A DNA stretch of 64,000 nt from Monocercomonoides exilis PA203 (Eukaryota; Protista; Preaxostyla), in contig LSRY02000075.1 in assembly GCA_001643675.2 (NCBI GenBank), positions 1 to 64,000 on the forward strand. Reading direction: 5' to 3'. A program made the translations under genes and the position numbers. The notes below the pieces were generated by a model, which searched no databases, was not told the origin of the DNA, and saw only the letters and a program-made list of their open reading frames with translations. Positions 8,201-64,000 of the stretch are shown here, in pieces; the first letter of the stretch is position 1, and every line of letters starts with the position of its first letter.

Positions 8201-10229
8201 TTCCACCTCATGCACTCCTTCCTGTTGTCTTCCTCATCCTCAAATGCCGATGAGGGCAGAGAGTCTCTGTCATCATCATCATCACTTGTTGATGTGACAA
8301 CAGTTGATGAAGAGATGGAGGATGAATCAGAATCTGAAGAAGAGCAGTCCGAGTGCATCGCAATGCAGATGACCATATGTTCTGAGAACAACACAATGTG
8401 GGGACTCAGATTGGTAAGAGATTGAAGTGGATTGTTCATTTCATCAAACGAGTGGAGTGCAAGATTGGCCACCCAGAACAGGATCTGAGCAGCCGTCACC
8501 TCCCTCTCCTGGAGAGTTCCGATTGCCATCTCTTTCTTCTCATTCTTTCCATGAAGAAGCATGAACAGCGAATCCCTCAAGTCGACAATCAGCTTCTCAT
8601 GGGGAGACGAGCAGGCCATTGCATCCACCAGATTCGACATCGACGATGTGGTTGGGTACAGACTTTCCGATCGAACAAATGTGGATTCTGTGTCTGATGT
8701 GTCTGTGGTAGAAGTGGATGAAATGGATGGTGATGGTGTTCGCTTTCTCGATATATCATCTTCTTCCTCATCAACCTTCTCCAGCATCCATTGAGGGATC
8801 TTGTCTGAGTCTCTTCCCAAAATGTATTCTGTTGATCCACTCTCGCTCAATAAATGTTCTGATGACTCAGAATGCCCCAAGCTTTTCTCATATACCCTCT
8901 TCTTGATCCTTTCATCGTTCTTCTTCTCAGCCTCCCTCTCGGCTCTCCTCCACTGCTCCTCAGGAGACATCTCCATCGTCACCATCTCAAACGCCTTCGG
9001 ATCCTTTCTGATGTTATCGTTCACAATCTCTCTCAAGTCTTCTGCTTCATTCTTCACATTCCTCCATCTGACTATTGAAATTACTGCAATAATAAGAATG
9101 ACAAACAGAACAATTCCCATAACAATCACAATAATTGGCCAAAATGATTTTCCATCTTTTCCTCCTTCAACAGTCCTTTCGTCTCCGTTTCCTTTCGGCT
9201 CGCTTCTGTTCTGCAAAATGAATGCCTCTGTGTGCGACGGCGCAGACATGTTCCCAAACAGAATGCTCACCCTCACCTCTGCCTCCTCTCCTCCCCATCC
9301 CACCTTCTCCATTTCTGCCCAGCGCCTCACCTCCCTTTCGCTCTCGAAATCCCCTTCCTCAAACATGTGCTTCTCCACAAACTCCACATCCCCCACAACC
9401 CCTACCACCTCAAACCCCATGGAGCACGGCAGCAGCACCCGTCCCTTGAACCTCAGCTTCACCATGCCTCCCACATCCTCTGTCTCCTCTGTTTCCACCT
9501 CGCTCAGATGCGGGATGAAGAATGCCGACTTCCTTTCCGAGGCAAGCCCTCCCATCTGGCACCCCTCTTCCACCATCCACAGCGAGTCATCTTCCTTCCA
9601 CCCATCTCCTCCTTTCAGACTCACCACATCCACTCTCCCACCTTCTGTGCACACCACATTCCGCCGAGCTGACACATATTTCGCAGAACTCCCCTTATTG
9701 TTCCAAAACTCCCCTCTTTCGATCGTTGCACTTCCCCCTGCAACAGACAGTGCCCCAGCCTCTGAGTTGCAGATTGTCGAATCCTTCACCACAACTGTGC
9801 TGTTGACCCCACAAATCTGCGATCCGTTCCACCAGCAGACCTCCTCCCCTTGCTCAAGAGGATTCCCCTGTGTTTCGTTGCTCCAACCCCCATCAACAAC
9901 ACAACTCGAGCACACAATGTTTGTGCATGATACAAATGACATCACTGTTCCAATATTTGAAGTCGATGAAGAAACTTCCGAAACAAATGATGATGATGAG
10001 CATGAATCGAACAAGCAGTTGTCCACACAGATGCAATTGTTGCTGTATGATATGGACAGAATGCTCGGCTTGTGGGCAGCACTGGAAATGTTGCTGAACG
10101 ATGAGAAAAGGACCGAGAAGTTGTGAGCTGCATCATTGCTCTGCTCACCTTGTATTTGTCCTTGCCCTTGCCCTTGCACCTGGCTGTCCATCACCATCAT
10201 GCATCCACTTCTCAGTCGCACATGCGATG
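5219..10229 (-). repeat. Palindrome P1, right arm
   Basis: Reverse complement of 1-4998, nearly free of substitutions. Confidence 0.97.
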
Positions 10230-19200: not shown

Positions 19201-20218
19201 AATCGAAAGCATTGTTTTCAATAATAATATTTGAACAGTATGAGATGTACAAACCACCTCCGTGCCACCCAGAACATTGATAAAACAAACAGGATTTGAT
19301 TGAAACATTATTTGCATTTTGAATAAACAGAGCTCCAGCATTTTCACCTGTTTTGATGGAGTTCCATTCGACATTTTCAAAACTCACTGTTTCGTTGTTT
19401 GTAATCCTTTCCTTTTTTCCTTCACTGTATTTCTGTTTGCATCTGAAGAATGTCGAGTTGAAAACACTTGTCGAGCCACCAGCATTGAAGTCTGCCAGAA
19501 TGCCTCCATTGATCGGGTTCCACACCTCTTCAAAACTGCATCCACAAGCAGTTGTGCTTTTGCCCCCACCCTCTCTCCTTGTCCCTTGCTCATCACGCCT
19601 CCCTTCCCATGTGATGTTTCTGAAATGGCAGTTGTCAAGCCTCACCCATTCGCATCTGCACGAACCAATCAGCGGCTTGCTGCCTGCCACACAAAACGAT
19701 GAAAATGAAGTGCAACCCAGAAACAGGCAACTTCCTTCACACGAGCACAGCGATCCCATCTGCCATTGTGCCAAGCCAAATGGCTGCAGCAAGCAGTTCT
19801 TCATCTCCAGCAGCCCACCCTTCACATCGAACAGAGGAACATCCAAATGCAAAACATCAATCACACAAGCACAAAATGAACACATCGAAAGCTCATCAAG
19901 CTGGGCAATGTGTGTGTTTTCAATCACTGTAACTTGCACATCCCTCAAACAGAGAGTGGAATTGATTGAATCAAAGATGACCTGGTGCATGTCAGGATGG
20001 AAAGTGCAGCTGTTGGATTGGATGCGGGAACGGTTGTCTTCAGACAGCGGGGATTGTCTGTTGCCTTTTTGGGATTGCATCACTCCAATTCCAAATGCCG
20101 TATCACTTCCATTTTCATTCTGAGAAAGAAACAAGTTGAGGTGTTTTGTTTGTTCTGAAACAACAAAGCCAATTTGGACAACAAGGCAAAATGTGATCAT
20201 TGGCTGAATTGCTTCCAC
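7735..20218 (-). CDS. Giant type-I membrane receptor-like protein (~4160 aa): signal peptide, GGG-rich beta-helix-like repeats with ~8 'D-x(2-3)-CG-x5-(P)C-x-S/T' modules, single TM, Ser/acidic linker, kinase C-lobe-only pseudokinase. One frameshift near 17035.
   Basis: ORFs 16856..20218 (hydrophobic N-terminus MITFCLVVQIGFVVS) and 7735..17034 join at ...GLNVT/VGQGSRKG across the G-run acgggtgggg. TM is FWPIIVIVMGIVLFVILIIAVISIV-RWR. Kinase motifs are RWKAPE (VIII), VVFSVGMMVWE (IX), IPF and EDRMTL (XI); HRD, DFG and the N-lobe are absent. Confidence 0.85.
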
Positions 20219-43925: not shown

Positions 43926-46900
43926 ATGATTCCTTTTGTTTTGGTTTTGTGCTTGAGTTTATCATTCTGTGGCAATGATGAAAATGAACTGCTGCGCAAC
44001 GGAAAAGTCACCTTTTGCATTCCTGTTGCGAAGAAGAGTGTTGTTTTTACCAAGGGAAGTATTGTTCATGTACTCGGTAAGATTTACAATTCAACTGTTA
44101 AATTGAAGGGAATATTGGTCGAAAAGCGCGATGGCTGCTTAGCATTCGATATCTTCACAAGATCAATCCTTGTTGTTGAAAACTGCCATCTTTTGGAAAA
44201 GAGTGATTCTTATCATCATTATGTCAAAAATGAAGGAACATGCGAAATGATCAATACCTCCTTGTATTTTGAATACAAAGAAAAAAATGAGCTGATGAAA
44301 AGCGTTGTGCAGATGAATGATGAAGATTCATTGTTGCTTGTGAGAAAATGTGTTTGGAAGAATATTGCATTTTGTGGGAGTGGAAGCCTTTTGAGAGAAG
44401 GTTCAGGATGTTTTGAAGGAATTAAAAACTGTGAATTTGTGAATATCACAAAGAAACATAGCGAAAGAGAGACGAAGCAAATTGAAAAAGAGTTGATGAT
44501 GAAAATGAGCGTAATGGAAGATTGTCAAGTTGAAAGTTCAATGAATGTGCTTGAAGGAGGGATTGTGAGCGGAACGGAAGGATCTATTTTCTTTTCCTGC
44601 AACAATTGCACATTCAAGCACAACGAAAGAACTGATCGGAAAGTTAAAAATACAGAAAGAAATTCAACTACTGAGACACAGAACTTCATGAACGCTGAAT
44701 GGAATGGATGTTCTGCTCCATGTGGTGGAGCACTGTATGTGCATGATAATTCGAATGCAACGCTGACTGTTGAGAATTCATCTTTTGTGAAATGCAAAGC
44801 AACTTCAACGAGAGGAGGAGGAATATTTGCTCTGAATATTGCCGAATGCACAGTGAAACATTCCAAATTTGTTGAATGCAGTTGTATAATCACAGATAAT
44901 TATGGGGGAGGTGGAGCAGAAATTGAAGGATTGACAGTTCAAGTTTTTTTTGAGAATTGCTTTTTCAAAGATGATATTTCAGGGGACGATGGAGGTGGAT
45001 TGGGAATTTGGAGTTCAAAAACAACAAAATCAAAAGATTGTATTTTGGACTGTTCATATATTAATTGCACAGGGCTTAATAACACTGATTCTTATGGAGG
45101 TGGTATTATAAGTTGGGGCCCAGTTGATAAAATAGTTACTAAAAATTGTTTATTCCAAAGCTGTGATGCTATTTATTGTGGAGGCGGTGTTGCAATGAGG
45201 GTTCAGACTTTTGGAGGAGAATTAATTTGGTTTTGCTTTTTTCACAACAACGCTGCACAAAATGGTACTGACGTATTTGTGCATGATAACTCTTCGAATT
45301 CTCAACTCGTATGGTGCTGTTCAACACGAACAGAAGGAGTGAGATATTATGCTGGAGGCGATAAAAGTGAATGGCTTCCAAATGGAGGAAGAAGCAGATT
45401 CGTTTCTTCGAAGGAAAGTCAAGCCAATGCAAAAGACACATTCAGCTGCGGATTGAATGAATCCTGTGCATGTTTGACCATTAGCCATTGTCTATCCCAA
45501 ATGATTGTGGGGTTTGTGGAAGAAATAAAAGTGCTAGCTGGAATGGTTGTTGAAGGAAAAGGAATTGATGTTGGAGAGAAAACGATCTCTGTAAATGGAG
45601 TTTCGCCATCTGGGTCTGCCATTGCAACAAAATTTGAGGCAAATGGGTTGAGTCTGTTTTGCGTTGGAACAGGAGGATTGACTGTGAACGATCTATCAGT
45701 GATTCACAACACCTCATATGAAAACAACAGGCAATGCAGGCTGTTTGAGGTTGAGGGAAGTGGGTTGATGGATGTGAAGAGAATGAACATTTCGATGGAT
45801 GCAGCTCATTCAGAGGAGAGGTGTATTCAGAACTCACTCGTGAAACTGGAAGTGGGGCAGTTGAAGATGAAAGATGTAATGTGGGAACAAACATTCAGCT
45901 CCACAAGTTTGATATCACTTTCTCAGGAGGCAGCTGTGACATTGTATCTGGACAACTGCACATTCAACAATATTGTGAGAACAACAGCCGGTTCATCGTT
46001 GATGAGTGTGGGTGAAAGGTCATATTCAATAACTCTTGAGGGATGCACGCTTGATGGTTGTGGAAGTGAGGAATCTGAATTTGGAGGGGGAATGATGATT
46101 GAAATGGGAAGTTGGAGTTCATTGACGATAAGTGGAGGCATCGTGAAAAATTGTTTTGCTTCGATCACTCAAGGAAAAGGAGGTTGGATTGGGTTGAAAG
46201 TGGGAGATATAAATGCAGAGTTTCTTATTTCACCAGCATTTGAAGGGAACAGGGCCAAATGGGGAAGCAGTATTTTTGTTGACTCGATTGATTTGGAATC
46301 AACAGCAACAAGTGGGAAGATCACTTCATTGACAGCTTCAAATCCGTTGTTGGATGAAATTCGAGGATTCGATAAAGGCGATGATTCAATTCCGATTCCT
46401 TTGTGCGCTTATCTGATTTCAATTCCAGATGAGATTTATGTGAGCAATGTTGATGCATTTAATCACTTTCTTTGTGGATTTGCTGAATTTCCCTGCATGA
46501 TTCTGAAGCACTCACTGAAAAGGCAAGAAGAAGAAAAGAAGATTGTTGTCGATGGGATGATTGAAATGCAAGATGAGCTGGTATTCGACTCATTCAAGCA
46601 CACAATCAGAGGGAAAGATGGAAATAGTGGATGGAAGGTGAGCAATGATCCGAATAGAAGTGACGGAAGCATGATAACAGTCAGTGCAAATGCAAATATC
46701 AGTTCACTAATTCTCTCTGTTCCTTCTGTTCTTCCAAATTACGAAGCATTCTTCAGTTCCGCCTCACAATCATTTTCACTTGAAGATTGCTCGCTGACTT
46801 TTCAAGACTCCAAATCAGCGTTGTCTTATGTGTTTTTGTCAGTAACAGCAGGAGAGGTTTCTGTTTCATCGTTGAATGTCTTGTCTTTGGTTATTGGAGA

Positions 46901-49900
46901 TCATCCATTGATTTCTCTTGATGGAAGCAATGCTGCTGGTTCATTCACTTCTTTGAGTGCCGATGATATGAGCTCGACAGGAAATAGTGTTTTGTTTGGG
47001 GTGGCGAATGGAGCATCTTTTTCGATTAAAGATTCAACACTTTCAGTGAAAGCATCTTCACAAACAGATTTGCCATCAGGTTCAATTCGAGTTATTTCCA
47101 CAAATTCAGCCAAGATTTTGAAGCTCACAAACAACACGATGAATAGATTCAGAGGGATTGGGGAAAATGGAGGAGCTATAGAATGCACACTTGGGAGAGA
47201 TTGCTCTCTGGAAGTAGTTGGAGGGCTGATATCTGGGTGTGAGAGCAAAGGAGGAAATGGAGGAGGGCTGTGGGTTGAGATGAAAGAAGAATCATCCTTC
47301 ACTGTGGGAAACATGACAGATACTGACCAAGTGAATGCAATAACATCAAATGATGTCAGCGATTTATTTCAACTTGTGGATTGCAAGGCAAAGCGAAACA
47401 CATATGGAGAGCATGGATATGGAGGAGGGATTTATCTTCATTTGGATGATGGAGCTCAGTCATTCATTTTGGAGAAAATGTCATTTACTGGATGTGATGC
47501 TCAAGAAGGGAAAGAAATCTTCATCAATGCAAATGATCTTTCGAGTGCGATTAGCAGAAGCTCGATTGAATTTGAAGTTGATTTGAATAACTTCACAAAA
47601 TTGAATGGGTTTGAGAGATCAACATCAAGCGAGACATTTGCCATTCCACTGGTATTGTATCTGTGGAACAACTTTTCTGTGCAAGCATTTGTTGGAGGAT
47701 CATTGAGTCATGATTTTTCGAAGTGTGGATTTGAAGAGTTTCCATGCTCCACAATCACGAAGGCGGTGTCAATCTATTTTGAAGGGAAGAAAAAAGATAT
47801 CTCAATTATTGAGCCATTTGCCTTTAAGGAGGAATTGAGCTTGAGTACAGATGAATGGGGGATCAGAGCAAAGGACAATGAGATGAAATGTGGTGTTGTT
47901 GATCAGGCAGAAGGAGCACAAAGTGGATTGATAGAAAGCTCAGTCAGTGTGTCTGTGACCGGCATTGTATTTTCTTTGATTCAATCGCTGACCTTTCATG
48001 AAAGTGTGTTTGAGTGCTATTCAGGGAAGCTTACACTAAATGAATGTGGGATGGAAGGAGGCTCTGAGGCTATAACAACAGTGTTTGTGAAAGCTATTGG
48101 AGGGGTTGTGGAAGTGATTGAGTTTGGATCAAAGAATATGAAAAAAGGGGATACGTCGTTTTTCATTGTTGAGGGAAGCGCTGAAAGTGTGCCTTTACTA
48201 AATATGACGAAAAGCAATTTTGCTGAATTCACATTTGGCGATGGATGTGTTGTTGAGAGCTGCAATGGAAACATTGAAGAGATGTCAGGATGCACATTTT
48301 CATCGATTACTCGTTCGAAGGGAAGTGGAGGGTGCATCAGCATCACGAACAAGAATGATAACAATGGAAGAAATTTCAAAGTGGAAATAAATGACTGCAC
48401 ATTTGATGGATGTGCTGTTGAAGAAGAGGAAAATGAGATTGGAGGAGGTGCTCTCTTTTGTGAGGCATCTTCGAAAACGAGTCTGCTTATTAACGGGTGT
48501 AAGTTTTATGGTTGCACAGCACCATATGAAGGGGGAATTTCTGGATATGGAGGAGGGATGATGCTGAACATGTTAAATGAGGAAGAAGAGGAAACGTTTG
48601 TGATATCCTCACCAACTTTTTCTTCTGACAAACCAAACAATGCAAAATATGGGCAGGATTTGTTTATTTCGTCTCCATCGCTCGTCAAGAGCATCAAGAA
48701 CGAAACGCTTCCATTTGTGAAAGATAGACTGGAGAAACTGACAGAAGACTCGATGAGAGGGTTTGATGGAGAAAACAGGGAGCGTGCAATCCCACTGATC
48801 TATTTCTGGAAATCTGTTGGATCTAGTGTGTATATTGCAGAGGAAGGAAACAATGTTGTTGTGTGTGGGTTGTTGGAGTATCCATGTAGGTCTATTGATT
48901 ATGGGATGAATCGGATAAACAGTTCAACAGTTGAGCAGATGACGATTCATGGAGTTTGTGATGTGATGAGTGTGATAGAGATGAGTGGGATGAAGCTGGA
49001 AGGAACAGATGGAAAGTCAGACAAAATCCGATTTGTTCAATCAATTAAAGAAAATGGGAATGCTGTTGTTGAATGCAAAGGAGTTGTTCAATTCAATGAA
49101 TTGGGGATTCTGATTCCCAGTGCCTTTGATAATGGAGCAAACATCCTCATCCGGACAGGTTCAGATGCAGTCAAAACAAGTATTGTGAGTTGCACAGTTC
49201 ATAAAATTGAAAATGTGAAAGATGAGGTGTCATTTGTTCTGATCAGTGCTTTAAAAGGAATTTTTTCTATTGAAAAGACAAACATTGTTGGATTCTCAAC
49301 GATGCATGAGATAATGAGCACATCAGCTGATTGTGTGACAACCATGAACAATGTGATATTTAAAGATATTTCATTGGGCGGGAAAAGTGCAATTATGATG
49401 AGTGAAAGTGTGATTTCTGGATGTGGAAATGATTATTCAGAAGAAATGTGGAATATTCTATTTGAGCAATGCACTTTTGTGAATGTGAAGAACAATGAAG
49501 CAAGTTACCCTTCGTTGTTTTACTGTGATATTTCAAATAAAATGAGATTGAAAATGGATAATTCAACAATTGATGGGTGTGGGTCGACAAGTTCAAATGA
49601 AGGAGGAGGAATGTTCTTCCTCCTCAATGAGAGGGAGAGATTGGAAATGAATCACACAAATGTGACAGAATGCTTCTGTTCGAACACTGGAAGAGGAGGA
49701 GGATTGTTTTTTAAATCACAGAGTGTCTCACAGGAAGCATTGCCATTTGTGCTGTCGAACATCACCTTCCGAGGGAATGTTGCTTCAAAGGGGAGAGACG
49801 TGTTTGTGAAGTGCACTGATCTTGACTCACAGATAAGTGAATCTCAATTTTTAATTGATTTCAGAGAGCCATTTGTGAAGGATCAAGCGATTTGGGGATG

Positions 49901-52900
49901 CACAGCAGACAATTATGGGGATGAAGAGGATCTTCTGAAGAGGGTGTTTGTGTTCAGGAGCGAATTCATATTTGTTTCATCGATTGTGGGGAACAACAGC
50001 GACAGTAAGAACTGTGGGGAAATGAAAGGCGCATGCTCATCGCTGAATGTTGGGATGAGCCACATCATTCCCTCAAGCTATTCACAGCTGTATATTTGGA
50101 ATGAAACGACTTTAACTGGTTCGTGCTCTGCTCAAAAGGTGACCATAAAATCGATGGAAGCGAACAGAAATGCAGAGATAAAAGTGATTGAGATCAACTT
50201 GGCTGGTGAAGGAGCTGTGACAACTTCTGAGTTTGTTCGATTTGAGAATATTTCATTTGGTTTTGGTGGAATACAGAATGTTGCCTGCTCGTGTTTATTA
50301 CATCAGCTGAATGGATCTCTTATTCTCGAATCTGTTTCATTTCAATCTGAGTCGAGAACAACAGAGAATTCACAGACCATTTTTGATTTTTCTCTGATTA
50401 TTGTTGAAGAAGGGATATTTGAGGTCGATAAGTGCAATATTGGTCATATTGGTTTCTCGAAGCCTGTGTTTCAGATATTGCATTCAGAAATGGCAACATT
50501 TGAGGATGTGGGAGTGGATGATGTGGATTGCAAAAGTTCGATGATTGAATGTGATGAAAGCGAGAATTTGGGCATCATAAAGTTGAAAGCATCTAATATC
50601 ACCCTGCAAGATAAAAGCCTGTTTGCATTTGAAAATATCCATTCGTCTCTGTTTGTTTCATCATTGGTACAGTCGTCGTTCACAAACATCAGCCGATCAA
50701 CTTCTGGATCAAGCATTATTTGCACAACACATCCAATGAGTGGATTTGAGATTCGTAACTGCTCTTTCCATGAATGTGTGTCAAAATCGCTTAAAGGGAG
50801 TCAAGTGGCAATAGCAATGAGTGAGAATATTTTGATGAAGTTGTGCAAGTTTGAAGGAAATGCAAATGCTGATGCAGAATTGAATGAAATAACTAATGAG
50901 ATCTGTCGGTGGAATGGATCTGTTGTTGATTTTTCGAACTGCTTCGTGATGATGAAAGATACAATAGTTTGTAATTCCTCAAAAGGAGGAATGAGTGTAA
51001 GTGAAGGATCAACAATAGTTATTCAAGAAGGAAGATTTGAGAACAACAGCCCATCCATTGAGAATTATCCATCGGTGCGGAGAAACATGTTGTGTTCTGA
51101 TTCAGCTGAGGTGAATATTATGAGTCTGAAGGGAGGAGATGGAGTGTTGCCAGATTCATCGATGTGGATTCTGAATGATGGATGCACGCTGAAGGGGATT
51201 GTTGAGGAGCGAGCATCACCATTGTTCATCCCAGTGCTGGAGGATGTTTCTGTGAATGAAAATGGAAGAAATGCCATGATAAAATTCAAGGGCTCTCTTT
51301 TTGTGCCATGTGACTTATCTTTCAGAGTTGTGCATAAAACAGGGGATGTGGAGGTGATTGAGACATATCCTTTTGAGGAAGACAGTTTTGTATCAGAAAC
51401 GGAAGTTGGTGGGATGATTCCATCAGAAAATATTTCAACGATTGCAGACGAAACGGAGGTGTCTGTGATGATATTGTATGGAAAGCAATTGGCTGCAACT
51501 TCTTCTCAGATACTGAAGAACAGAACAGAACCAAAGACAGGAATTGATAAAGTGGTTGAAGGAGGAAAGGAAGGAAAATTCTCATGGATATTGATTGTTT
51601 GCATTGTAGCTGTTGTAGTGCTATTAATTGTGTCGATAATATTCATTGTTCGATGGAAGAAGGTGAAGAATGAAGCAGAAGACTTGAGAGAGATTGTGAA
51701 TGATAACATCAGAAAAGATCCGAAGGCATTTGAGATGGTGACGATGGAGATGTCACCAGAAGAGCAGTGGAGGAGAGCAGAGAGGGAGGCTGAGAAGAAG
51801 AATGATGAGAGGATAAAGAAAAGGGTGTATGAGAAAAGTTTGGGACATTCCGAGTCATCAGAGCATCTTCTCTCTGAGAGTGGATCAACAGAATACATTT
51901 TGGGAAGAGACTCAGACAAGATCCCTCAATGGATGCTGGAGAAGGTTGATGAGGAAGAAGATGATATATCGAGAAAGCGAACACCATCACCATCCATTTC
52001 ATCCACTTCTACCACAGACACGTCAGACACAGAATCCACATTTGTTCGATCGGAAAGTCTGTGCCCAACCACATCGTCGATGTCGAATCTGGTGGATGCA
52101 ATGGCCTGCTCGTCTCCCCATGAGAAGCTGATTGTGGATCTGAGGGATTCGCTGTTCATGCTTCTTCATGGAAAGAATGAGAAGAAAGAGATGGCAATCG
52201 GAACTCTCCAGGAGAGGGAGGTGACGGCTGCTCAGATCCTGTTCTGGGTGGCCAATCTTGCACTCCACTCGTTTGATGAAATGAACAATCCACTTCAATC
52301 TCTTACCAATCTGAGTCCCCACATTGTGCTGTTCTCTGAGCACATGGTAATTACAATTGCCCTCCACTCTGACTGCTCTTCTTCAGATTCTGATTCATCC
52401 TCCATCTCTTCATCAACTGTTGTCACATCAACAAGTGATGATGATGATGATGATGACAGAAACTCTCTGCCCTCGTCTGCCTTTGAGGATGAGGAAGACA
52501 ACAGGAAGGAGTGCATGAGGTGGAAGGCGCCAGAGCTGCTGAATGGAACAAGGAAGCATGCGACGAAGAAGACGGTTGTGTTTTCTGTTGGGATGATGGT
52601 GTGGGAGTGTGTGACGCTGCAGATTCCGTTTGGGGAGTATTCGGGAGAGGCAGCAGGGAGCATGATTGTGCGAGGAGAGAAGGTGGGGATGGGTGTTGCG
52701 AAGGGGTCGCGTGTGAGGGGGGGTTGTGGGTGGGTGCCTGCGTTATGAGGCAGAGGATCGGATGACGCTGGGAGATGTGAAGCGGGAGCTGATCAAACTG
52801 TTCCCTCCGGGTGCAGCAGTGCTCACGATGACAGATGCGATCGGGTACGAAGAGGAGTCGGAGGAGGCCTGCAGCACCAGCTTGGCCATCATGGCCAGTG

Positions 52901-53010
52901 GAGCCAGCATGAACAGCACGACATGCATGACCAGCATGACAGACATTGGCAACAGATCCAGAGACATGAAGAAGCCAGAGGAAGTGAAGGATGAGGCGAA
53001 TGGCAAATGA
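43926..53010 (+). CDS. Second giant receptor-pseudokinase (~3030 aa): signal peptide, ~5 CG..C modules, TM, and the same cytoplasmic pseudokinase tail. +1 frameshift in the G7 run at 52717-52723.
   Basis: ORF 43926..52748 (MIPFVLVLCLSLSFCG; TM WILIVCIVAVVVLLIVSIIFIV) plus ORF 52726..53010 supply the same C-terminus as the P1 gene. P1 has gtgagaggggtt where this copy has one extra base in a G run. Confidence 0.88.
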
Positions 53011-55841
53011 TGAGGAGATCAGAACAGAACAGAGGAGAGCAGGATAATGAAATAAAAAAATCAGACAAGAGGAGTTGAGCATTCATTGGAAAACTTTGAA
53101 TGTGTTCAACATTTTTGAACAGCACAGAAATAGAGTTGGTTTTGAACAGAAAAAAGAAAAAGATAATGAAAAATGAAAAAGAAAAAGAAACCCTGGTGCA
53201 GATAACACAATGGCCATTGGAGGACGAGTGAAGCCAGAAGGCTTCTCTGAACCCGTGGGAGCAATGATTGGTTGTTGCCCATTGTGTTGTGGATGCTTGT
53301 CCAGGTGCATGGTGCATGGTGCATGCTGGGAAAAGCGGCAATGCCCACATGGCCGAACTCTGATCAGCACAGCATCGCTTCAGACAAAACATTTCATATT
53401 CCATTTTCAGTTGTTGTTGGAATAATTTTATTTATTTTATGTGTGTATTTTTGTATGGTTGTATCCATCTTCACAATATGAAGCATTTGCAGGATGGGGC
53501 AAGAACTGCCCAGTTGCTGCTGTTTCATTTCCTCTCTTTATTTTTTTTTTTTTTTTTTTTCATTTCAAAGAAAAACAAGAAGAAAACTCGATATTCAGCA
53601 TCTGTAAAAGCAGTCGAAGTCATTCATGATTTTGTGGTGCTTTGTGGCTGGAGTGCCCATTGACCACGAAAGAAGCACGGGGAGGGCAAAAGACTTGGAC
53701 GTATTTGCTGGAGAGCTGTTGTTCTGCTGTTCGGGTGCTGTCAGCCAAGTCTGTTTCTGAGTAGCCGGGCAAGGCTCAACACATCCCCACAAAAGTTGGG
53801 AAAGATATTTTCTGCATCTTGTCTCCTCCTGATGAATGGCAAGCATCAGTCATCCAACTGCTTCAAATGCAGTTCCAATCAAGAATGCAATCGAATTAAC
53901 ATGAGAAAGAAAGAAATGCTCTTTTATTGGCATTTCTTCTTCTTTTTTTTTTTCCAGCTGAGAGAGGACATTCTTTTTCCAGTGCAGGAAAACATCTTGT
54001 TGTTTGTGCCATTGCACACACACACACACATACACATTATTGTGAGTTGTTGAATCTGTGGTTGAGTGTGTTTGCCTCCATGAGCTTCCCGTCAAAGGCC
54101 ACTGAGCATGAGAATAGCAGATGAAGGTGAATGATTGCTGTTGTTTGTTGATTTTGTGGGAGTTGCATCTCTAACACAATGGAACAAATACTCATGGCCA
54201 AGCAAAATTAGCACATATAGGGTGGTCCATATTTCTTTGCAAAAATAATAAAAAATGGGAAATAAAAAATAAAAATATCAAAAAATATTCGATAAAACTG
54301 AATTTTGTTCGTCAATCGGTTTGTGAGCTGATCAAATACATGATAAGCTTCAATTTGTTAAAGTTTGGAGCTTCCAGATATTCGAACAATTCGTTCCTGG
54401 AATACAAAAATTTTTCTAATAATTTCAACAGATATGATTTTTCAATGGTTTGATAGTTGGAAAAGGTGATTGCAATTTGTAACGACTCATAAATGTGATT
54501 ATTATTATGAAAAATGTTTTTTAATAAAATTTTAATACCATATTTAATAATTTAAACAAAATATTTTGGACCACCCTATACTACAAATATGAATCGAATT
54601 ATTCAGGATTTGTGATGGTTCCCAATGGTATTGATTTTTGTTCCAATTTCTTTTATCGCTTCTGAGGAAAAAATAAACATTGGCAAAATTTTGTTATTCC
54701 ATTTCTTCAACTGAAGAGACAATTTGACAAAGCGTTTTCAATGTGGGATAAGAACATCTTCCTCAACAGTCAATGTGTTTGTTATAATGTCATAGCATTA
54801 ATTGGCTGAAAAATGTTCTTCCAATGACAGCATTTGTCAGTGGAAACACATTCAAAAAACACCACATTTTGCCACATATGCCCACAACAAGGAAGTGCAG
54901 TTGAACTTCGATCTCAACTGTTTGAGGGCAATCACCAACATATGTGAGCAATACTTTTATTTGTCTTCTTTATTCATTGGGGTCCTTGTTCTTATTTATT
55001 TTGTTTATTCAAATCATTTCAAACAATAAAATAAAATATTTTTTTTTTAAATTATTTGTGATTTTTAATAAAAGCTGAACTTCGACAAAAATTTTTTATT
55101 TTCAAAAAAAAAAAAAAAAAAAACGAAAATACCTCTTTTGAAGAAATAACTCAAAATTTTCCACTCTTTGTTTTTTGATGATGATTTTCTTGTTTTTTTT
55201 TCGAAGAACGTCTGAGGCAAAAACATAGCACTTCAATCATTTTCTTCAAAATTAACTGCACCATTCATGAACTTTTTGGTTAATTTACAATAAATAAAAA
55301 ATACCCGTTTGATGGATTGGTTTTTTTATAAAAAATATATAATGAATGAGACAAATCAACAAAATTACTGCATCAATGGTGTTTTCAAACAAATGAGACA
55401 AATTTTGATTGATTCACTGCAATTTGTAGGTGTTGCTATTTTATTGAAGGAAATGACACGTTTATGCATCAAGAAAAGAAGCTTGAAAATCCAATTCCTT
55501 TTTCAACATATTTGTTGTTGTGTTTTTCTTTTTCACACTGATCTTTGTTATTCTTCGCTTGATTCTTTTCATGTTTGGTGATTGTTTTTGAAATCATAAC
55601 TGTTTTCGGAATGTGGATAATTTGTTCTATCTCTTTTATGATGAGCACCTTTTTTTTTTGAATTCTAAATATTCAATTCACTGAATTCAGAGTTGCAAGA
55701 AACAAACAAACAAGTGTTCAACAAACTCCACAAAGTTTTGCATTTCCTTCAGGGAAAGAAACATTTGTGAAATATCATCAGACAATTATTGATTGAAATT
55801 TTTCTGATTGAACAATAATGATTATAACTATATTTGACAAT
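52718..55841 (+). repeat. Palindrome P2, left arm (the part whose mirror lies inside the window)
   Basis: Mirror ORF pairs 52726..53010/63708..63992, 54802..55029/61694..61921 and 55309..55581/61142..61414. Confidence 0.96.
54218..54578. mobile_element. MITE, Tc1/mariner-type (361 bp; TIR TAGGGTGGTCCA; TA target duplication)
   Basis: ta|TAGGGTGGTCCAtatt...aatatttTGGACCACCCTA|ta. Absent from the homologous P1 site (tagcacacacaaaaaatatgg, ~3641-3661). Confidence 0.9.
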
Positions 55842-56230
55842 ATCATCATTTGTGTTTTGAAAATTCAAAAACACTTCTTCCCACTTCATTTTTCTTTTTT
55901 TGATTCAAATTCCAATTCATTATATCTGTAAGTATCTTCATTTTTTAATATCATTTTTTCATAACTTTTCAAAGAAAACAATGATTGAAATTTCAGTCAA
56001 TTCTTTTTGAAAAATAAATTATAAACCTGAATATCACACATTTCAATCTGCAAAAAGAAAAATTGTTAAACCACACTTTGGAAGAACAAATAATCAGTAT
56101 CATCCAAAAAAATGAAGCAAAAAAATTAAGAAATTATTCCAAAAATCAAAGCCATATCCATGAATTTTTGAATTTGGAATTTTAATCAAAAAAAGAAAAA
56201 TGAAGTGGAGAGAATTGAAAGAGAAAATGG

Positions 56231-56299
56231 TTATTTCACTTCCTTCTCTTATATTTTTGAGAGCGCCACGTTATGGGTCAGTCACCCAGCTGATCAAAA
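56231..56299. repeat. DIRS 3' inverted terminal repeat
   Basis: ttatttcacttccttctcttatatttttgagagcgccacgttatgggtcagtcac..gctgatcaaaa is the reverse complement of 60746-60815 with few mismatches. Confidence 0.93.
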
Positions 56300-56550
56300 T
56301 GGCACTTAATGAAATGGTGAACAAACGTGCAAATGGGAAAATATAAAGAATTGAAACTTGGCAAATTGAAAATTATAACAAATGCAGTGAAAACACATGT
56401 TAGAAACAAGAAAGGTATTATTTAATAAATTTGAATGTTTTGAAATATAAACTTTAAAGAGAAGGTATTATTAGTGTTTAATTTTCACATCATTGTTATT
56501 CAGCAATGATTGATTCATAAGGGGATGTGATGTCTAAGTTGTGGAGGGAG

Positions 56551-56658
56551 TAAGAGAAGGAAGTGAAATAACCATTTTCTCTTTCAATCAAAACACAAGC
56601 GTTTTGATTACATAGAAAACATTTATTTCACTTCCTTCTCTTATATTTTTGAGAGCGC
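56551..56658. repeat. DIRS internal complementary region (ICR)
   Basis: 56551-56588 is the reverse complement of the element end 56214-56251, and 56585-56658 is the reverse complement of the other end 60780-60853. The two halves overlap at caat. Confidence 0.93.
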
Positions 56659-56687
56659 AGATAATTGGGAAGGTTTGATAATGTTAA

Positions 56688-58409
56688 TCAGCTTGAACTT
56701 GAATCCTTTTCTTCGTGTTGTTTCTTTTCCAATTCTTTTCTTCTTTGAGATCTTGTTCGGATAATGAATTCAATCTTAGCCTCGCTGATAACTGTCTGTA
56801 CAGTATTGTTTTCTTCGGTGTCCTCTGGTTCCTCAACTTTATCTGAGTATGCAAATATTGCTTGTTGTTTTTGATCTCCGCTTTTACATATTTTCTTTGT
56901 TGGTGTTTGTTCCTCGGATTTTGAACTGGAATTTGTTTCGGAATCGGATTCCGCCTCAGAATCTGAATCGGATTCTGACTCAAGCCCACTTTCTTCAGGT
57001 GGAAGAATAGTTGAATTGCCTCTTGCTATCACGTGGGCCAGCTTGCTTGACACATCTGATCGGACGTAATGCTTTGTGATAGTGTTGCTTCTAGGAGAGA
57101 GTCTGGCAAACTTAGCAATTTGGGCTAAGGGAATTCCTGCCATCGGTAGCGCAGTGATAGACGCATGTTTCAATGAGTAAGGCCCGAAACACCTCGGAAT
57201 CCCGGCATCCTGTAACATTTCAGCTGCATAGTTACGAATCCTTCTTGCAGAAAGTGTTAGATGAGTTTTCTCATCAATGAATAGTGAAGTTGCATTTGGC
57301 TGAGATTCTTTGATTCTGTTCCAAAGTTCCTTTACGGAAGCTGCTGGGCACACAAGCGGCTGTTCTTTTAGAAACGGGATGATAATATCTGTCCGTTCTG
57401 TCGATGTTTTTAATGATGAATCAAGTTTTATTTCATCGTCTCCAATTGTTGAATTATGGAGGTTAATCCTTTCCAACTCCGTAAAGCGACAGGCGGAGAA
57501 CAACATACATGTGCAAATAACCTTTTTTGTCAATTCGTGAAAATCAAGGTTCCTGTTCTCACCTAATGATGTTATTTTCAGCAGTAGGAGTTGTGGGTTC
57601 CAGATGTCTGGTTTGTCTCTTTTCTTCCTGTTTTCTGATCTTCTGAATGATTTTAATAGCCTTTGCATGAGAGCAGATTCTCCAAGGCCTCTTTTGTACA
57701 GTAATTCTGAGATAAGAGAAAATGCGGCACATGTTTGTTTGAGCGTCGAAGCTTTCGTCCCTTTGTCCTTCAGGCTTATGAAGATGTGAGCACATTTTTC
57801 AACCCAGGTACTCCAAGCTTCCGGTGGGTCTCCATTTCGATTATCTTCCCATATTTCACTGAAACGTGCATAACTATATGAATATCCTTTCCATGTGTTT
57901 TCAGCAACGCTATTTTTGCATTCATCGATTACCCTTTCGGAATATCCCTTTGAAAGAAGCATTCTCCGAAACCATTCTTCTCCTTGTGATACTAAGGATT
58001 GATTAGGACTATTCTCATTCTGCCTGGTGGTAGACTTGCTTCCATCCGTTTCATCCATCTTCCTTCCTTCAAAACCTGGTTCAGTTCTTTCCATCTCCAT
58101 TCGCAGTGTCTCGACATTCTTATCAGTGGTTCCCATATCTGCCCTCTCCAATCTGGCATCAGAAGAAGAACATGTGCATTTTCCTCTATTGATTTCACAA
58201 TCGTTGGAACTATTGACGGAATCGGAGGATAGGCTAAAATAACGCCTCTTTGCCATGATTGCTGGAGTCCGTCTTCGTTTAGCGTGCTTCCTGGACCGCA
58301 CCATCTGTCCGCTTTCGTGTTCTCGTTCGTTGCGAACGCATCCAACGTTATTATGAGATTGAGGTTTTCGGTGATCTCGTTTAGCTCTTCTTGTTTTATG
58401 GAGTAATCT
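56688..58409 (-). CDS. DIRS tyrosine recombinase ORF (fused to RT-RH in the ORF track only because of the frameshift at 58410-58414)
   Basis: FSACRFTEL (catalytic R, 57486-57488), LKT, VCPAAS, PYSLKHASITAL (HxxRH position, 57165-57182) and KHY (Tyr, 57066-57068). Acidic/Ser tail; TGA at 56688. Confidence 0.88.
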   Translation of the reverse strand, partial: RLLHKTRRAKRDHRKPQSHNNVGCVRNEREHESGQMVRSRKHAKRRRTPAIMAKRRYFSLSSDSVNSSNDCEINRGKCTCSSSDARLERADMGTTDKNVETLRMEMERTEPGFEGRKMDETDGSKSTTRQNENSPNQSLVSQGEEWFRRMLLSKGYSERVIDECKNSVAENTWKGYSYSYARFSEIWEDNRNGDPPEAWSTWVEKCAHIFISLKDKGTKASTLKQTCAAFSLISELLYKRGLGESALMQRLLKSFRRSENRKKRDKPDIWNPQLLLLKITSLGENRNLDFHELTKKVICTCMLFSACRFTELERINLHNSTIGDDEIKLDSSLKTSTERTDIIIPFLKEQPLVCPAASVKELWNRIKESQPNATSLFIDEKTHLTLSARRIRNYAAEMLQDAGIPRCFGPYSLKHASITALPMAGIPLAQIAKFARLSPRSNTITKHYVRSDVSSKLAHVIARGNSTILPPEESGLESESDSDSEAESDSETNSSSKSEEQTPTKKICKSGDQKQQAIFAYSDKVEEPEDTEENNTVQTVISEAKIEFIIRTRSQRRKELEKKQHEEKDSSSS

Positions 58410-60089
58410 CCCCCTTTCTAGCCTGGATAGAGCATCTGCTCTGACATTCTTCATCCCTGGCAAGTGTTGGGCTTTTATCTGAATGTGATTGTTCTTAACA
58501 AATGTCCACATTTTCATCAGCAACTTCCTGAGGTTTGTTCCTGCATTCCATCGATTGATATTGAAGACCGCTGTTGTTTTGTCTGATCTGATTAGCAAGC
58601 TGCAGACTTTGTTCGCTTGAAGAAGGTATCTGAAATGATTGAGTGCTCGATTGATTGCATATAATTCCCTGAAATTCGAGCTCTGGCCTTTCATCTTCCC
58701 TGGAAGCGATTGATGGAAATCGTATTTCTTGTTGTTCATCAATAGAAAAGCTCCCACGGCTCTCTCTGATGCATCTGTCGTCAAGGTTGCTTGTGGTTGG
58801 AATATTGGACAAATCTGTCTCGGTTTGTTCGCATTCAGTCTCGATATCCATTTTTGAATGCTCGGAAGGATTGATGGGTTGATTCTCATCCTTCCTTTCC
58901 ACCCCACTTTTTTGACCATTCTGTTCAGCAGCATGTACATTGATGGAAGAAGGAGTGAAGCTTCCTTGAAAACGAAGCGAGTTGCACTAAGCTTTCCAAT
59001 GAACGACGCGAAATCTCTCACTCTTGTTTGCTTGCATTTCAGTGCTCGGCGCCTCCATCTGTAACATTCTGTGAGCAATTCTTTCTTTCTGTCTTTCTCC
59101 AGAGTTACGGTGAAGTTGGAAGTGTCCCATGAATATCCGAGGAATGAAAAACGATTTGATGGTTCTGTGTGGCTCTTTTCCAGGTTTACAATTAGTCCAA
59201 GCTTTTGAAATAGACTTATAACTTCTTGTGCGATTCTCTTTAGTTCTTGCTTGTCTTGATGGAGCAAGACAATGTCGTCTAAATATGCGACAGCTTTCAC
59301 CTTCCATCTTTCCCGAATGAACGAAATGACCTTTCTCATAACTTTTGTGAATATTCTTGGAGAGTCCTTGTAACCGAAAGGCATGCTGGTGAAGCAATAA
59401 AATTCTTTGTTGAATTCGAAGCTTAGAAAAGGAGTGAAATCCTCTGAGACCTTGATGAGGTAGTAAGCTTGGCTTAAATCCAGTGTAACTGCGAAATCCC
59501 CATTCTTTATAATTCTTTCCACAGATCGATGATCCTCTTGTTTGAAGTGAATTGTTTTTATCGTATTGTTTAACCTCCTGCAATCCACAATCTGTCTCCA
59601 GCTCCCATTTTTTTTCCTGACAACAAATATTGGATTGAGAAATTTCACTTCGTTTTTGGTGGTTTTCCTGAGAATTCCAGTTTTCACTTGAACTTTGATT
59701 AACTCCGCCAAGGCTTCCCTTGCTTCTTGTGATTGCTTCGGTCTCCTGCAATTTACCTGAGAGTTGATAAGGGTTTTACGAGCTTTGGAACTCCTCCAAA
59801 CCGGAACTACTCCTCTTTTGATCATCTTTTCTCCTCCCACAATTTTCCATGCATCGGAAAATAACGCTGTTCTTCCACCAATTGTGAGGTTGTGTTCTAT
59901 TGAGACTTTGCTTTGTCCCCGGAACTCCCTCTTGAGTAATTTCTTGGAGCGCTGCTTGTGATGAATGATCGTTTTGTGCTGGGCGTCCGGGGCCAATCTC
60001 GAAAAAACCGATAATTCTTTGTTCCACTTTGAAATCCCCTGGTTTGTTTCTTCCTTGTATATAAATTTGTGATACTTGCAGACCCCCAT
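57992..60089 (-). CDS. DIRS pol: reverse transcriptase - RNase H - Dam-like adenine methyltransferase, with one frameshift at the C5 run 58410-58414
   Basis: RT: IFVVRKKNGSWRQIVDCRRLN, LDLSQAYY, MPFGYKDSP, AYLDD (59274-59285), FLG. RNase H: TTDAS, NFRELYA, HLPGMKNVRADALSRL. The shifted frame continues DYSIKQEEL..LDAFATNENTK..AYPPIP..MPDWRGQIW..LPPG to TAG at 57992. Confidence 0.92.
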
Positions 60090-60739
60090 CTTTGTTTCGT
60101 GGATATCTTCTTCGATTCTTCTAAAATTTCTTTTTGTCTTTGAGTTAACAGCGATGATGAGAACTTGTCTTTCATTTTTTCTGATTCAGAAAATCCATAT
60201 CTTGCTTGTATTCTAACGTGTCTAACTTCTTTCAGTGCCTGGGCTAAAAGTAAACATGAATCTGCTATCATTTCTTTCGTCGTATCTCCTGACTTGATTG
60301 TTGAACATGCCGAGATAAGTAACTTTATTGCTGGATAAAGATATGTTTCCGTCCTTTCCCCCGCACGATCGAGCGCGTCTTTCCATTATTCTTTGGATCT
60401 TGTAAATGGTGGAGGAGCATTCTGGATAAAAGGAATCAAATCTTTATCTTTAAAAAATGATTAAGTTTTGTTAATTTTATTCTCTGGTGGATGCATATCA
60501 TGAAATGAAATTTCTTGTGGCTGTCCAAATATTTCCATGAAAGCTTGCTGCAATGAAGACTCTCCTTCATCTTCTTCAATTCGTGTTAAATCTGTCCTGC
60601 CATCAAGTGCAGACTGAAAGATTTATTGGGAAGCGGAATAACTCCCTGCTATTGAAGGAATTGCACTCGGAGGGCCGCCAGTCAGCGGAGCTGCGCAAGG
60701 TTCGGTCGCGAGTCCGGTTCCCACGCAGATGGTCGACAT
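59897..60739 (-). pseudogene. DIRS ORF1 (gag-like), 281 codons with three in-frame TAA
   Basis: ATG at 60739, just inside the 5' ITR. A single frame runs to TAG at 59897, interrupted only by TAA at 60623-25, 60461-63 and 60386-88. It overlaps the start of pol, as in DIRS elements. Confidence 0.75.
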
Positions 60740-60745
60740 GTTTTC

Positions 60746-60853
60746 TTTTGATCAGCGATCGTGACTGACCCATAACGTGGCGCTCTCAAAAATTTAAGAG
60801 AAGGAAGTGAAATAAATGTTTTCTCTGTAATCAAAACGCTTGTGTTTTGATTG
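60746..60853. repeat. DIRS 5' inverted terminal repeat (60746-60815) plus terminal extension with a hairpin (60829-60852)
   Basis: Reverse complement of 56231-56299 and of the ICR half 56585-56658; hairpin aatcaaaac-gcttgt-gttttgatt. Confidence 0.92.
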
Positions 60854-62143
60854 TTCATGAATTTTTAAGACAAATAATGACATTGTCAAATATAGTTATA
60901 ATCATTATTGTTCAATCAGAAAAATTTCAATCAATAATTGTCTGATGATATTTCACAAATGTTTCTTTCCCTGAAGGAAATGCAAAACTTTGTGGAGTTT
61001 GTTGAACACTTGTTTGTTTGTTTCTTGCAACTATGAATTCAGTGAATTGAATATTTAGAATTCAAAAAAAAAAGGTGCTCATCATAAAAGAGATAGAACA
61101 AATTATCCACATTCCGAAAACAGTTATGATTTCAAAAACAATCACCAAACATGAAAAGAATCAAGCGAAGAATAACAAAGATCAGTGTGAAAAAGAAAAA
61201 CACAACAACAAATATGTTGAAAAAGGAATTGGATTTTCAAGCTTCTTTTCTTGATGCATAAACGTGTCATTTCCTTCAATAAAATGGCAACACCAACAAA
61301 TTGCAGTGAATCAATCAAATTTTGTCCCATTTGTTTGAAAACACCATTGATGCAGTAATTTTGTTGATTTGTCTCATTCATTATATATTTTTTATAAAAA
61401 AACCAATCCATCAAACGGGTATTTTTTATTTATTGTAAATTAACCAAAAAGTTCATGAATGGTGCAGTTAATTTTGAAGAAAATGATTGAAGTGCTATGT
61501 TTTTGCCTCAGACGTTCTTCGAAAAAAAAACAAGAAAATCATCATCAAAAAACAAAGAGTGGAAAATTTTGAGTTATTTCTTCAAAAGAGGTATTTTCGT
61601 TTTTTTTTTTTTTTTTTTTGAAAATAAAAAATTTTTGTCGAAGTTCAGCTTTTATTAAAAATCACAAATAATTTAAAAAAAAAATATTTTATTTTATTGT
61701 TTGAAATGATTTGAATAAACAAAATAAATAAGAACAAGGACCCCAATGAATAAAGAAGACAAATAAAAGTATTGCTCACATATGTTGGTGATTGCCCTCA
61801 AACAGTTGAGATCGAAGTTCAACTGCACTTCCTTGTTGTGGGCATATGTGGCAAAATGTGGTGTTTTTTGAATGTGTTTCCACTGACAAATGCTGTCATT
61901 GGAAGAACATTTTTCAGCCAATTAATGCTATGACATTATAACAAACACATTGACTGTTGAGGAAGATGTTCTTATCCCACATTGAAAACGCTTTGTCAAA
62001 TTGTCTCTTCAGTTGAAGAAATAGAATAACAAAATTTTGCCAATGTTTATTTTTCCTCAGAAGCGATAAAAGAAATTGGAACAAAAATCAATACCATTGG
62101 GAACCATCACAAATCCTGAATAATTCGATTCATATTTGTAGTA

Positions 62144-62504
62144 TAGGGTGGTCCAAAATATTTTGTTTAAATTATTAAATATGGTATTAAAATTTTATTA
62201 AAAAACATTTTTCATAATAATAATCACATTTATGAGTCGTTACAAATTGCAATCACCTTTTCCAACTATCAAACCATTGAAAAATCATATCTGTTGAAAT
62301 TATTAGAAAAATTTTTGTATTCCAGGAACGAATTGTTCGAATATCTGGAAGCTCCAAACTTTAACAAATTGAAGCTTATCATGTATTTGATCAGCTCACA
62401 AACCGATTGACGAACAAAATTCAGTTTTATCGAATATTTTTTGATATTTTTATTTTTTATTTCCCATTTTTTATTATTTTTGCAAAGAAATATGGACCAC
62501 CCTA
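62144..62504. mobile_element. Mirror copy of the 361-bp MITE in the right arm of P2
   Basis: Same TIRs and TA duplication (62142-43, 62505-06); the coordinate sum with 54218-54578 is 116722 at both ends. Confidence 0.9.
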
Positions 62505-63707
62505 TATGTGCTAATTTTGCTTGGCCATGAGTATTTGTTCCATTGTGTTAGAGATGCAACTCCCACAAAATCAACAAACAACAGCAATCATTCACCTTCA
62601 TCTGCTATTCTCATGCTCAGTGGCCTTTGACGGGAAGCTCATGGAGGCAAACACACTCAACCACAGATTCAACAACTCACAATAATGTGTATGTGTGTGT
62701 GTGTGTGCAATGGCACAAACAACAAGATGTTTTCCTGCACTGGAAAAAGAATGTCCTCTCTCAGCTGGAAAAAAAAAAAGAAGAAGAAATGCCAATAAAA
62801 GAGCATTTCTTTCTTTCTCATGTTAATTCGATTGCATTCTTGATTGGAACTGCATTTGAAGCAGTTGGATGACTGATGCTTGCCATTCATCAGGAGGGGA
62901 CAAGATGCAGAAAATGTCTTTCCTGACTTTTGTGGGGATGTGTTGAGCCTTGCCCGGCTACTCAGAAACAGACTTGGCTGATAGCACCGAAACAGCAGCA
63001 CGACAGCTCTCCGGCAAATACATCCAAGTCTTTTGCCCTCCCCGTGCTTCTTTCGTGGTCAATGGGCACTCCAGCCACAAAGCACCACAAAATCATGAAT
63101 GACTTCGACTGCTTTTACAGATGCTGAATATCGAGTTTTCTTCTTGTTTTTCTTTGAAATGAAAAAAAAAAAAAAAATAAAGAGAGGAAATGAAACAGCA
63201 GCAACTGGGCAGTTCTTGCCCCATCCTGCAAATGCTTCATATTGTGAAGATGGATACAACCATACAAAAATACACACATAAAATAAATAAAATTATTCCA
63301 ACAACAACTGAAAATGGAATATGAAATGTTTTGTCTGAAGCGATGCTGTGCTGATCAGAGTTCGGCCATGTGGGCATTGCCGCTTTTCCCAGCATGCACC
63401 ATGCACCATGCACCTGGACAAGCATCCACAACACAATGGGCAACAACCAATCATTGCTCCCACGGGTTCAGAGAAGCCTTCTGGCTTCACTCGTCCTCCA
63501 ATGGCCATTGTGTTATCTGCACCAGGGTTTCTTTTTCTTTTTCATTTTTCATTATCTTTTTCTTTTTTCTGTTCAAAACCAACTCTATTTCTGTGCTGTT
63601 CAAAAATGTTGAACACATTCAAAGTTTTCCAATGAATGCTCAACTCCTCTTGTCTGATTTTTTTATTTCATTATCCTGCTCTCCTCTGTTCTGTTCTGAT
63701 CTCCTCA

Positions 63708-64000
63708 TCATTTGCCATTCGCCTCATCCTTCACTTCCTCTGGCTTCTTCATGTCTCTGGATCTGTTGCCAATGTCTGTCATGCTGGTCATGCATGTCGT
63801 GCTGTTCATGCTGGCTCCACTGGCCATGATGGCCAAGCTGGTGCTGCAGGCCTCCTCCGACTCCTCTTCGTACCCGATCGCATCTGTCATCGTGAGCACT
63901 GCTGCACCCGGAGGGAACAGTTTGATCAGCTCCCGCTTCACATCTCCCAGCGTCATCCGATCCTCTGCCTCATAACGCAGGCACCCACCCACAACCCCCC
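63708..64000 (-). CDS. 3' end of a fourth receptor-pseudokinase gene copy (continues beyond the window)
   Basis: ORF 63708..63992 is identical to 52726..53010 (GGCLRYEAEDR...DEANGK). Confidence 0.85.
   Translation of the reverse strand, partial: GVVGGCLRYEAEDRMTLGDVKRELIKLFPPGAAVLTMTDAIGYEEESEEACSTSLAIMASGASMNSTTCMTSMTDIGNRSRDMKKPEEVKDEANGK

Follow-up and report, generated by a model that had tools for sequence, protein, structure and literature searches.

How a family of membrane receptors keeps almost the same cytoplasmic tail beneath strongly divergent ectodomains is the question raised by a locus of Monocercomonoides exilis PA203, of which we analyzed a 64-kb stretch (contig LSRY02000075.1, positions 1 to 64,000; hereafter the window). 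It holds two long receptor-like genes, A and B, plus a partial mirror copy of each. An earlier note on this DNA proposed a variable sensor joined to a constant signaling tail, with a fixed switch at the inner face of the transmembrane (TM) helix and with the tail and 3′ flank serving as a homology cassette for ectodomain exchange. We consider it probable instead that A and B belong to a large family of receptors predicted to span the membrane once, and that purifying selection acts with frequent ectopic gene conversion between neighbors to keep the tails similar. The features of the window are:

1..10229: palindrome P1, with its spacer at 5034-5183; the left arm is a partial copy of B, here B′ (1-2477).
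20200..7735, minus strand: gene B, ~4150 aa, with eight CG..C modules, a GC-rich ectodomain and a tail of the same type as in A.
43926..53010, plus strand: gene A, with a hydrophobic N-terminus, an ectodomain of ~2540 aa, five CG..C modules, a TM helix and a predicted pseudokinase tail.
49866..51530, plus strand: membrane-proximal ectodomain of A, predicted to be almost all-β (pLDDT 86.9).
51480..51662, plus strand: stalk and TM helix (TM at ~51585-51650), differing between A and B.
51663..51875, plus strand: juxtamembrane tail, identical in protein between A and B and 89% identical in DNA (23 of 213 positions differ, including a Ser TCT/AGC codon).
51876..53010, plus strand: putative recent A/B coding tract, 98-99% identical, covering a kinase C-lobe and two N-lobe strands, with no HRD and no glycine loop.
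53011..56217: non-coding 3′ flank and palindrome spacer, common with the B locus (~95% to 55850) and of low copy in the sequencing-run contigs.
54216..54585: MITE-like insert of 370 bp, with short terminal inverted repeats between TA.
56220..60826, minus strand: DIRS-like retroelement with reverse transcriptase (RT), RNase H, tyrosine recombinase and ~70-bp inverted terminal repeats, located close to the P2 centre.
60852..64000, minus strand: right arm of palindrome P2, 99% identical to 52718-55873 and running off the window.

An extra G in a G-run near 52719 breaks the frame of gene A in the window, and a one-base break lies near 17023 in gene B; the in-frame form of A is present in run contigs and in the protein P0001, B is in frame in run contigs, and both breaks are probably assembly errors. 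The module counts of the earlier note hold (eight in B; five in A, four by pattern and a fifth near residue 860 from direct reading), as does the difference in ectodomain GC content, which per 150 codons is 0.47-0.59 in B versus 0.36-0.44 in A. Its statement that the ectodomains share only scattered motifs was wrong: they are collinear homologues, blastp placing A 1454-2946 on B 1501-3014, with 15-45% identity per 100 aa. The ectodomain of A is 69% identical to that of P0017 over 2091 aa, and the A tail is nevertheless closest to that of B. GC3 is mostly 0.57-0.76 in the B ectodomain (9230-17037, minus strand) versus 0.22-0.49 in that of A. None of the 118 named proteins listed is closely related to the B ectodomain (best ~32%), a second B-type ectodomain at 98-99% was seen in run contigs, and P0005 does not match gene B of the window letter for letter. 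P0121, a second A-type protein, agrees fully with A from about residue 1250 onward and carries another N-terminal ectodomain, absent from the window; it may correspond to the gene on the far P2 arm, beyond the window, and its composition suggests that crossovers occur inside ectodomains too. Between B and A lies a low-complexity open reading frame of 3933 aa (29506-41307, minus strand) with no Pfam match. Contigs from bulk RNA runs cover both A and B.

The step between the two genes is sharp in protein and less so in DNA. gtgaagaatgaagcagaagac was found where reported, at 51663 and 1156 and, in minus orientation, at 9057, and in a codon alignment the A/B protein identity jumps at 51663 from 43% (last 236 ectodomain codons, pS 0.70) to 99% (350 tail codons from VKNEAEDL, pS 0.166, dN 0.013, dN/dS ~0.07). 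Synonymous sites in the tail are thus not saturated in this single pair with DNA, the rest of the family having been compared as protein only. The stalk and TM differ, as had been noted, with DNA identity at 0.587 over 51450-51662, and tail segments reach 0.892-0.989, except for one 42-bp patch at 0.69. The claim of near-identical DNA from 51663 onward stands for the protein, but the DNA of 51663-51875 differs and near-identity begins only at 51876, with 5 mismatches in 453 positions at 51876-52328, 13 in 42 at 52329-52370 and 13 in 616 at 52371-53011. Judged from these mismatches, 51663-51875 appears to be an older or re-converted segment beneath a recent A/B tract that would begin ~70 codons into the cytoplasmic part; the first residue private to the A/B pair lies at 51954. 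Over the first 71 tail residues A and B are identical, which is true of only 4 of 6670 other pairs, and it may be that their tract at one time extended to the TM, as the earlier note said.

Past the stop codon the near-identity continues, as had been seen: the non-coding 3′ flanks of A and B match at 0.952 (1166 sites) and 0.945 (1242 sites), that is, at ~95% across 2.4 kb of aligned non-coding DNA into a common palindrome centre. Because the A/B similarity extends into non-coding DNA, selection on the protein is insufficient by itself to account for it. In this window A and B each lie tail-to-tail around a palindrome centre. The partial copy B′ at 1156 differs from B in tail and flank only by small deletions, in a sequence that is unproven by reads, and the right arm of P2 carries the 3′ end of a second A copy. 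The 370-bp MITE is identical in both P2 arms (its mirror lies near 62140-62505) and absent from P1, a distribution that points to arm-to-arm copying; run contigs suggest that related copies of this element exist elsewhere. The DIRS-like element, whose RT, RNase H and tyrosine recombinase lie within one stop-to-stop frame of 1165 aa (56688-60185, minus strand), is inserted ~90 bp into the right arm of P2, and the 94 bp of the arm that it cut off have drifted to 83% identity. The P2 arms differ in short patches at 53650-53850 and 55350-55450 (7, 4 and 4 mismatches per 100 bp). A further inverted repeat in non-coding DNA lies at 27180-28186, its 430-bp arms matching at 97% around a spacer of 147 bp, and a weaker one at 28591-28804. 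RNA cover is missing beyond ~53850, which was not counted as evidence.

The shared tail has the fold of a kinase C-lobe with APE/αF motifs. It matches the Pfam Pkinase/PK_Tyr families at E ~1e-4, below the curated cut-off, and TNNI3K (TKL-type C-lobe) at E 1e-14, and Foldseek also returns kinase matches. Since HRD and the GxGxxG glycine loop were each found in 0 of 118 tails, the positions aligned with the catalytic HRD and DFG motifs reading S-x-x-N-L-S-P-H and x-H-S-D, and since the structural model places only two strands before the hinge, short of a complete N-lobe with glycine loop and VAIK lysine, and with residues 65-141 disordered, the tail is a predicted pseudokinase; 7 of the 118 contain a loose DFG-like pattern at some place in the tail. 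Of the 118 members, 98 share an identical block of 36 tail residues. Contrary to the earlier note, the tail varies, its median identity across the family being 84% and its last 90 residues being only 15-48% identical. On the outer side of the membrane, the best fold matches of the proximal ectodomain are mostly right-handed β-helix tailspikes and polysaccharide lyases, all weak (TM-score ≤0.31); PF13229 was found on 2 of the 120 tail matches listed, and a Pfam search of the A and B ectodomains gave no match. It is likely that in these predicted receptors many ligand-binding surfaces feed one non-catalytic scaffold. The family corresponds at least in part to the annotated "protein tyrosine kinases" (TKL) of the same organism: the tail matches carry PF07714, and some are named putative tyrosine or serine-threonine kinases. 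According to the sections of the two genome papers that treat kinases, tyrosine kinases are the largest family of M. exilis, 332 in number and 320 of them TKL (PMC6759080, PMC8767320), and overlap unclassified repeats (PMC8767320); those sections make no mention of ectodomains, loss of catalytic motifs, palindromes or conversion.

The tail, used as a query, returned 521 matches, in proteins of 1612-5130 aa; the 120 listed comprise 118 named M. exilis proteins, the best 118 of the 521, and the two genes of the window. A reading of the window as a species other than M. exilis, with a tail common to that whole species, was set aside, since among these 120 there were no other near-identical tails and the window's proteins are listed under the same sources as the named ones. 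The family-wide comparisons are at protein level, from automatic gene models of which some contain false introns, and DNA was compared for one pair; P0019 and P0078 were dropped as duplicates from the trees and linkage analysis, the A/B private-residue counts and the motif counts. That variable ectodomains sit on a conserved tail was borne out among these 118-120 members, median identity being 84% in the tail versus 49% in the proximal ectodomain, with hardly any correlation between the two (Spearman 0.10, 7140 pairs). A second sample of 62 cluster representatives, at least 42 of them new, gave 83% versus 44% (ρ = 0.04) after 13 of 75 proteins without a full TM and tail had been dropped. Comparison of trees, which the earlier note had suggested, revealed incongruence: of 31 supported ectodomain splits, 4 recurred in the tail tree and 20 conflicted with it, supporting recombinational exchange, whereas in a control with the two halves of the ectodomain 9 of 17 splits recurred and 5 conflicted. 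Neither outcome that the earlier note had named as refuting its view, saturated synonymous tail sites (judged from A and B) or congruent trees, was thus observed. Linkage between variable sites decayed within ~10-30 residues in the stalk, TM and tail and persisted in the ectodomain; r2 fell from 0.22 (1-3 aa) to 0.016 (>80 aa) in the tail and only from 0.175 to 0.074 in the ectodomain.

By contrast, in Blattamonas the tail and ectodomain diverge together. Among 24 proteins of the same architecture, kept after 6 of 30 weak matches had been dropped, median identity was 48% in the tail and 45% in the ectodomain (ρ = 0.72). The Blattamonas tails are 20-29% identical to that of B, with no one-to-one orthologues, and are distant relatives only. 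One pair of Blattamonas nauphoetae proteins, P0278 and P0279, has identical tails, 48% identical proximal ectodomains and different contigs, a combination that is rare in the sample.

To what extent exchange follows chromosomal position was analyzed with contigs told apart by their length, as a proxy, and gene order taken from accession numbers, 10 proteins without a contig being left out. In 59 of 110 genes the tail had its nearest neighbor on its own contig (shuffled mean 2.6, maximum 13), and in 27 of 110 the ectodomain did. Pairs with tails at least 94% identical and ectodomains below 60% were all same-contig pairs (10 of 10, and 9 of 9 when A and B are left out), compared with 142 among all 5995 pairs, and none of 5000 shuffles reached the same-contig excess among pairs with unlike ectodomains. 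Tail identity fell with gene distance (0.935, 0.908, 0.877 and 0.862; ρ = −0.67), from the first of these values within 10 genes to the last beyond 150, and was 0.84 between contigs, while ectodomain identity showed no fall over the same 61 pairs of 20 genes, which are non-independent and come from three hand-chosen contigs. P0038 and P0094, two genes apart, have a tail identity of only 85%. A strict polarity of tracts anchored at the 3′ end was only weakly supported, the same-contig excess being 0.13-0.44 along the tail and 0.24-0.26 at −150 to −30. Chimeras alone give no direction, since an overwritten tail and an imported ectodomain look alike; the pattern appears better read as tails overwritten between neighbors. 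From the decoupled histories, the dependence on proximity and the contrast with Blattamonas, we conclude that the tail evolves in concert. Of the signs by which gene conversion is recognized, we observed a region-specific tree conflict, dependence on proximity (by contig and by order, both by proxy) and, for one pair, low divergence within the tract (pS 0.166 versus 0.70, with the flank at 95%).

The switch did not prove to be fixed at the inner face of the TM. VKNEAEDL, the motif proposed to mark it, is present in 31 of 118 tails (7 of 62 in the second sample) and is the commonest of several juxtamembrane alleles, which are combined in various ways with the blocks next to them. Linkage breaks down as early as the outer stalk, 60-90 residues before the inner face: at 10-40 residues it is 0.18 in the window that starts at −120, 0.05 in that from −90 and 0.02 in that from −60. 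Among 25 pairs whose tails are similar and whose ectodomains are not, the best shared tracts begin at points from −46 to +266. The stalk and TM are a patchwork of short alleles common family-wide, and would mark where the recombining zone ends on the outer side; in recent duplicates of whole genes, similarity is often lowest around the TM. Since seven long tracts among the 25 pairs start within −37 to +9, however, the TM region is a frequent limit of long tracts, and the earlier note is partly vindicated.

These seven tracts, together with the sharp A/B step at 51663, are what would be expected if ectodomains were exchanged in the style of antigenic variation, by a programmed or cassette mechanism that joins them, at one set position next to the TM, to a fixed tail and 3′ flank. 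P0121, which is A from about residue 1250 under a different N-terminal ectodomain, also fits such an exchange, as do P0071 and P0127, which lie on different contigs and have ectodomains mostly 86-97% alike above less similar tails. We nevertheless hold it to be improbable. In VSG cassette conversion, homology on the 3′ side ends the tract near the membrane anchor, and upstream repeats and an expression site are needed. The M. exilis genes resemble Trypanosoma VSGs in a tract-ending 3′ homology near the membrane, but, unlike in VSGs, no homology block was found upstream of the ectodomain between A and B (best match 52 bp). The flank, moreover, is no family cassette: paralogous contigs pile up only at ~51500-52710, while the C-terminal end and the flank are of low copy, a statement that rests on the contrast between that interval and its flanks and on the depths of single pieces, summed contig depth not being taken as copy number. 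Since the pile-up is limited to this interval and the upstream block is missing, the flank appears to be part of one local event, with nothing enclosing the ectodomain. Homology on both sides of the variable part, as in a VSG-type cassette, was thus not found (no 5′ A/B block, flank not family-wide), nor was a narrow 3′ junction, the 25 pairs starting at −46 to +266 and the junction motif, in 31 of 118, being one of several alleles; other tracts start 50-266 residues inside the tail. Finally, the RNA runs, which are bulk and not single-cell, hold A-specific and B-specific contigs and many tail variants.

Purifying selection alone, with A and B sharing one chance segmental duplication, could account for the low dN/dS of their tails, for the deep synonymous differences under an identical protein at 51663-51875 and for the 36-residue block, but it does not predict tail similarity that depends on contig and distance, nor the tree conflict or the short-range decay of linkage, and the same fold tolerates ~50% divergence in Blattamonas; it is already largely refuted, and we rate it a little below programmed exchange. 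Collapsed or mis-joined repeats and palindromes might also have produced false chimeras. Small deletions are all that separates the left arm of P1 from B, the depth of one arm unitig is close to single-copy (49 versus 36-42), one-base frame breaks occur in both genes and no run contig spans a whole junction. Yet the A/B flank differs by 5%, with a MITE and a retroelement besides, P0001, from another source, has the same A junction, and the pattern recurs in at least nine other same-contig pairs with tails of 94-98%, so that an assembly artefact is the least probable of these explanations.

Under the preferred reading, selection plus conversion between neighbors, selection on the scaffold tail would keep ~330 codons (~1 kb) of DNA similar enough to pair. 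Repair tracts would form in this pairable tail and end where homology fades, in the stalk and TM on one side and the variable C-terminus on the other; short tracts of ~10-30 codons would shuffle alleles across the family, and occasional long tracts between near neighbors would overwrite the whole tail. A and B would represent one such long tract, running from ~51876 through the 3′ flank to the palindrome centre, with ~5% neutral divergence. On this view, what looked like a switch at the TM would be the passive edge of convertible homology and not a programmed site. Palindrome centres can act as break sites, and breaks there would give long tracts covering tail, flank and tail. In a bolder extension, which we think unlikely although less so than the rival explanations above, the family would be a receptor repertoire driven by recombination: tail-to-tail palindromes would break at their centres and be repaired from neighboring pairs, the tail-flank-tail core would act as a mobile cassette, ectodomains would stay wired to one dead-kinase scaffold, and new chimeras, both between ectodomain and tail and within ectodomains, would arise fast enough to differ between clones, in an immune-like or prey-recognition system of this unicellular gut protist.

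The mechanism is of a known kind, at an unusual scale and with a natural control lineage. In Plasmodium var/PfEMP1 genes exon 2 is conserved and expression is mutually exclusive. They likewise join a variable ectodomain to a conserved cytoplasmic part, whereas the M. exilis family has no intron at the boundary and its tail exchange tracks chromosomal proximity; for var genes, the relevant sections of one study describe ectopic crossovers in short identity blocks and multiple template switches within exon 2 (PMC4270465). Mammalian TLR1 and TLR6 are neighbors with divergent N-terminal ectodomains and a C-terminal region of ~300 aa homogenized by gene conversion (PMC2077338). This resembles the present case in that the converted C-terminal region of neighboring paralogues lies beneath divergent ectodomains, but there only two genes are involved and the converted tract, whose limits are fixed, takes in the TM and four LRRs, while the M. 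exilis family is large, with scattered limits, a decay with distance, a predicted pseudokinase tail and palindromes. Trypanosome receptor adenylate cyclases are an expanded group of receptors that cross the membrane once and couple a variable ectodomain to a single effector domain, and conversion in trypanosome arrays is common within arrays and rare between unlinked loci (PMC7719234, PMC1855330). There the effector is an active cyclase and the arrays are head-to-tail, whereas the M. exilis kinase is predicted to be dead and its genes are interspersed, and tail-to-tail in the window. Neither the architecture nor conversion in this family is described in the portions of the literature covered, including passages of three M. 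exilis or Preaxostyla genome papers, whose supplementary kinase tables may bear on the point.

Part of the largest annotated "kinase" family of an amitochondriate model eukaryote is hereby recast as predicted receptor pseudokinases with β-rich variable ectodomains, which may explain a portion of the unclassified repeat content reported, in the sections noted above, to overlap kinase genes (PMC8767320). Whether a boundary between a conserved tail and a variable head stems from a dedicated mechanism or is the edge of homology becomes testable in one genome. The family would thereby offer a case of domain-restricted concerted evolution at family scale, with a measurable decay over distance, found in one oxymonad and largely absent in another.
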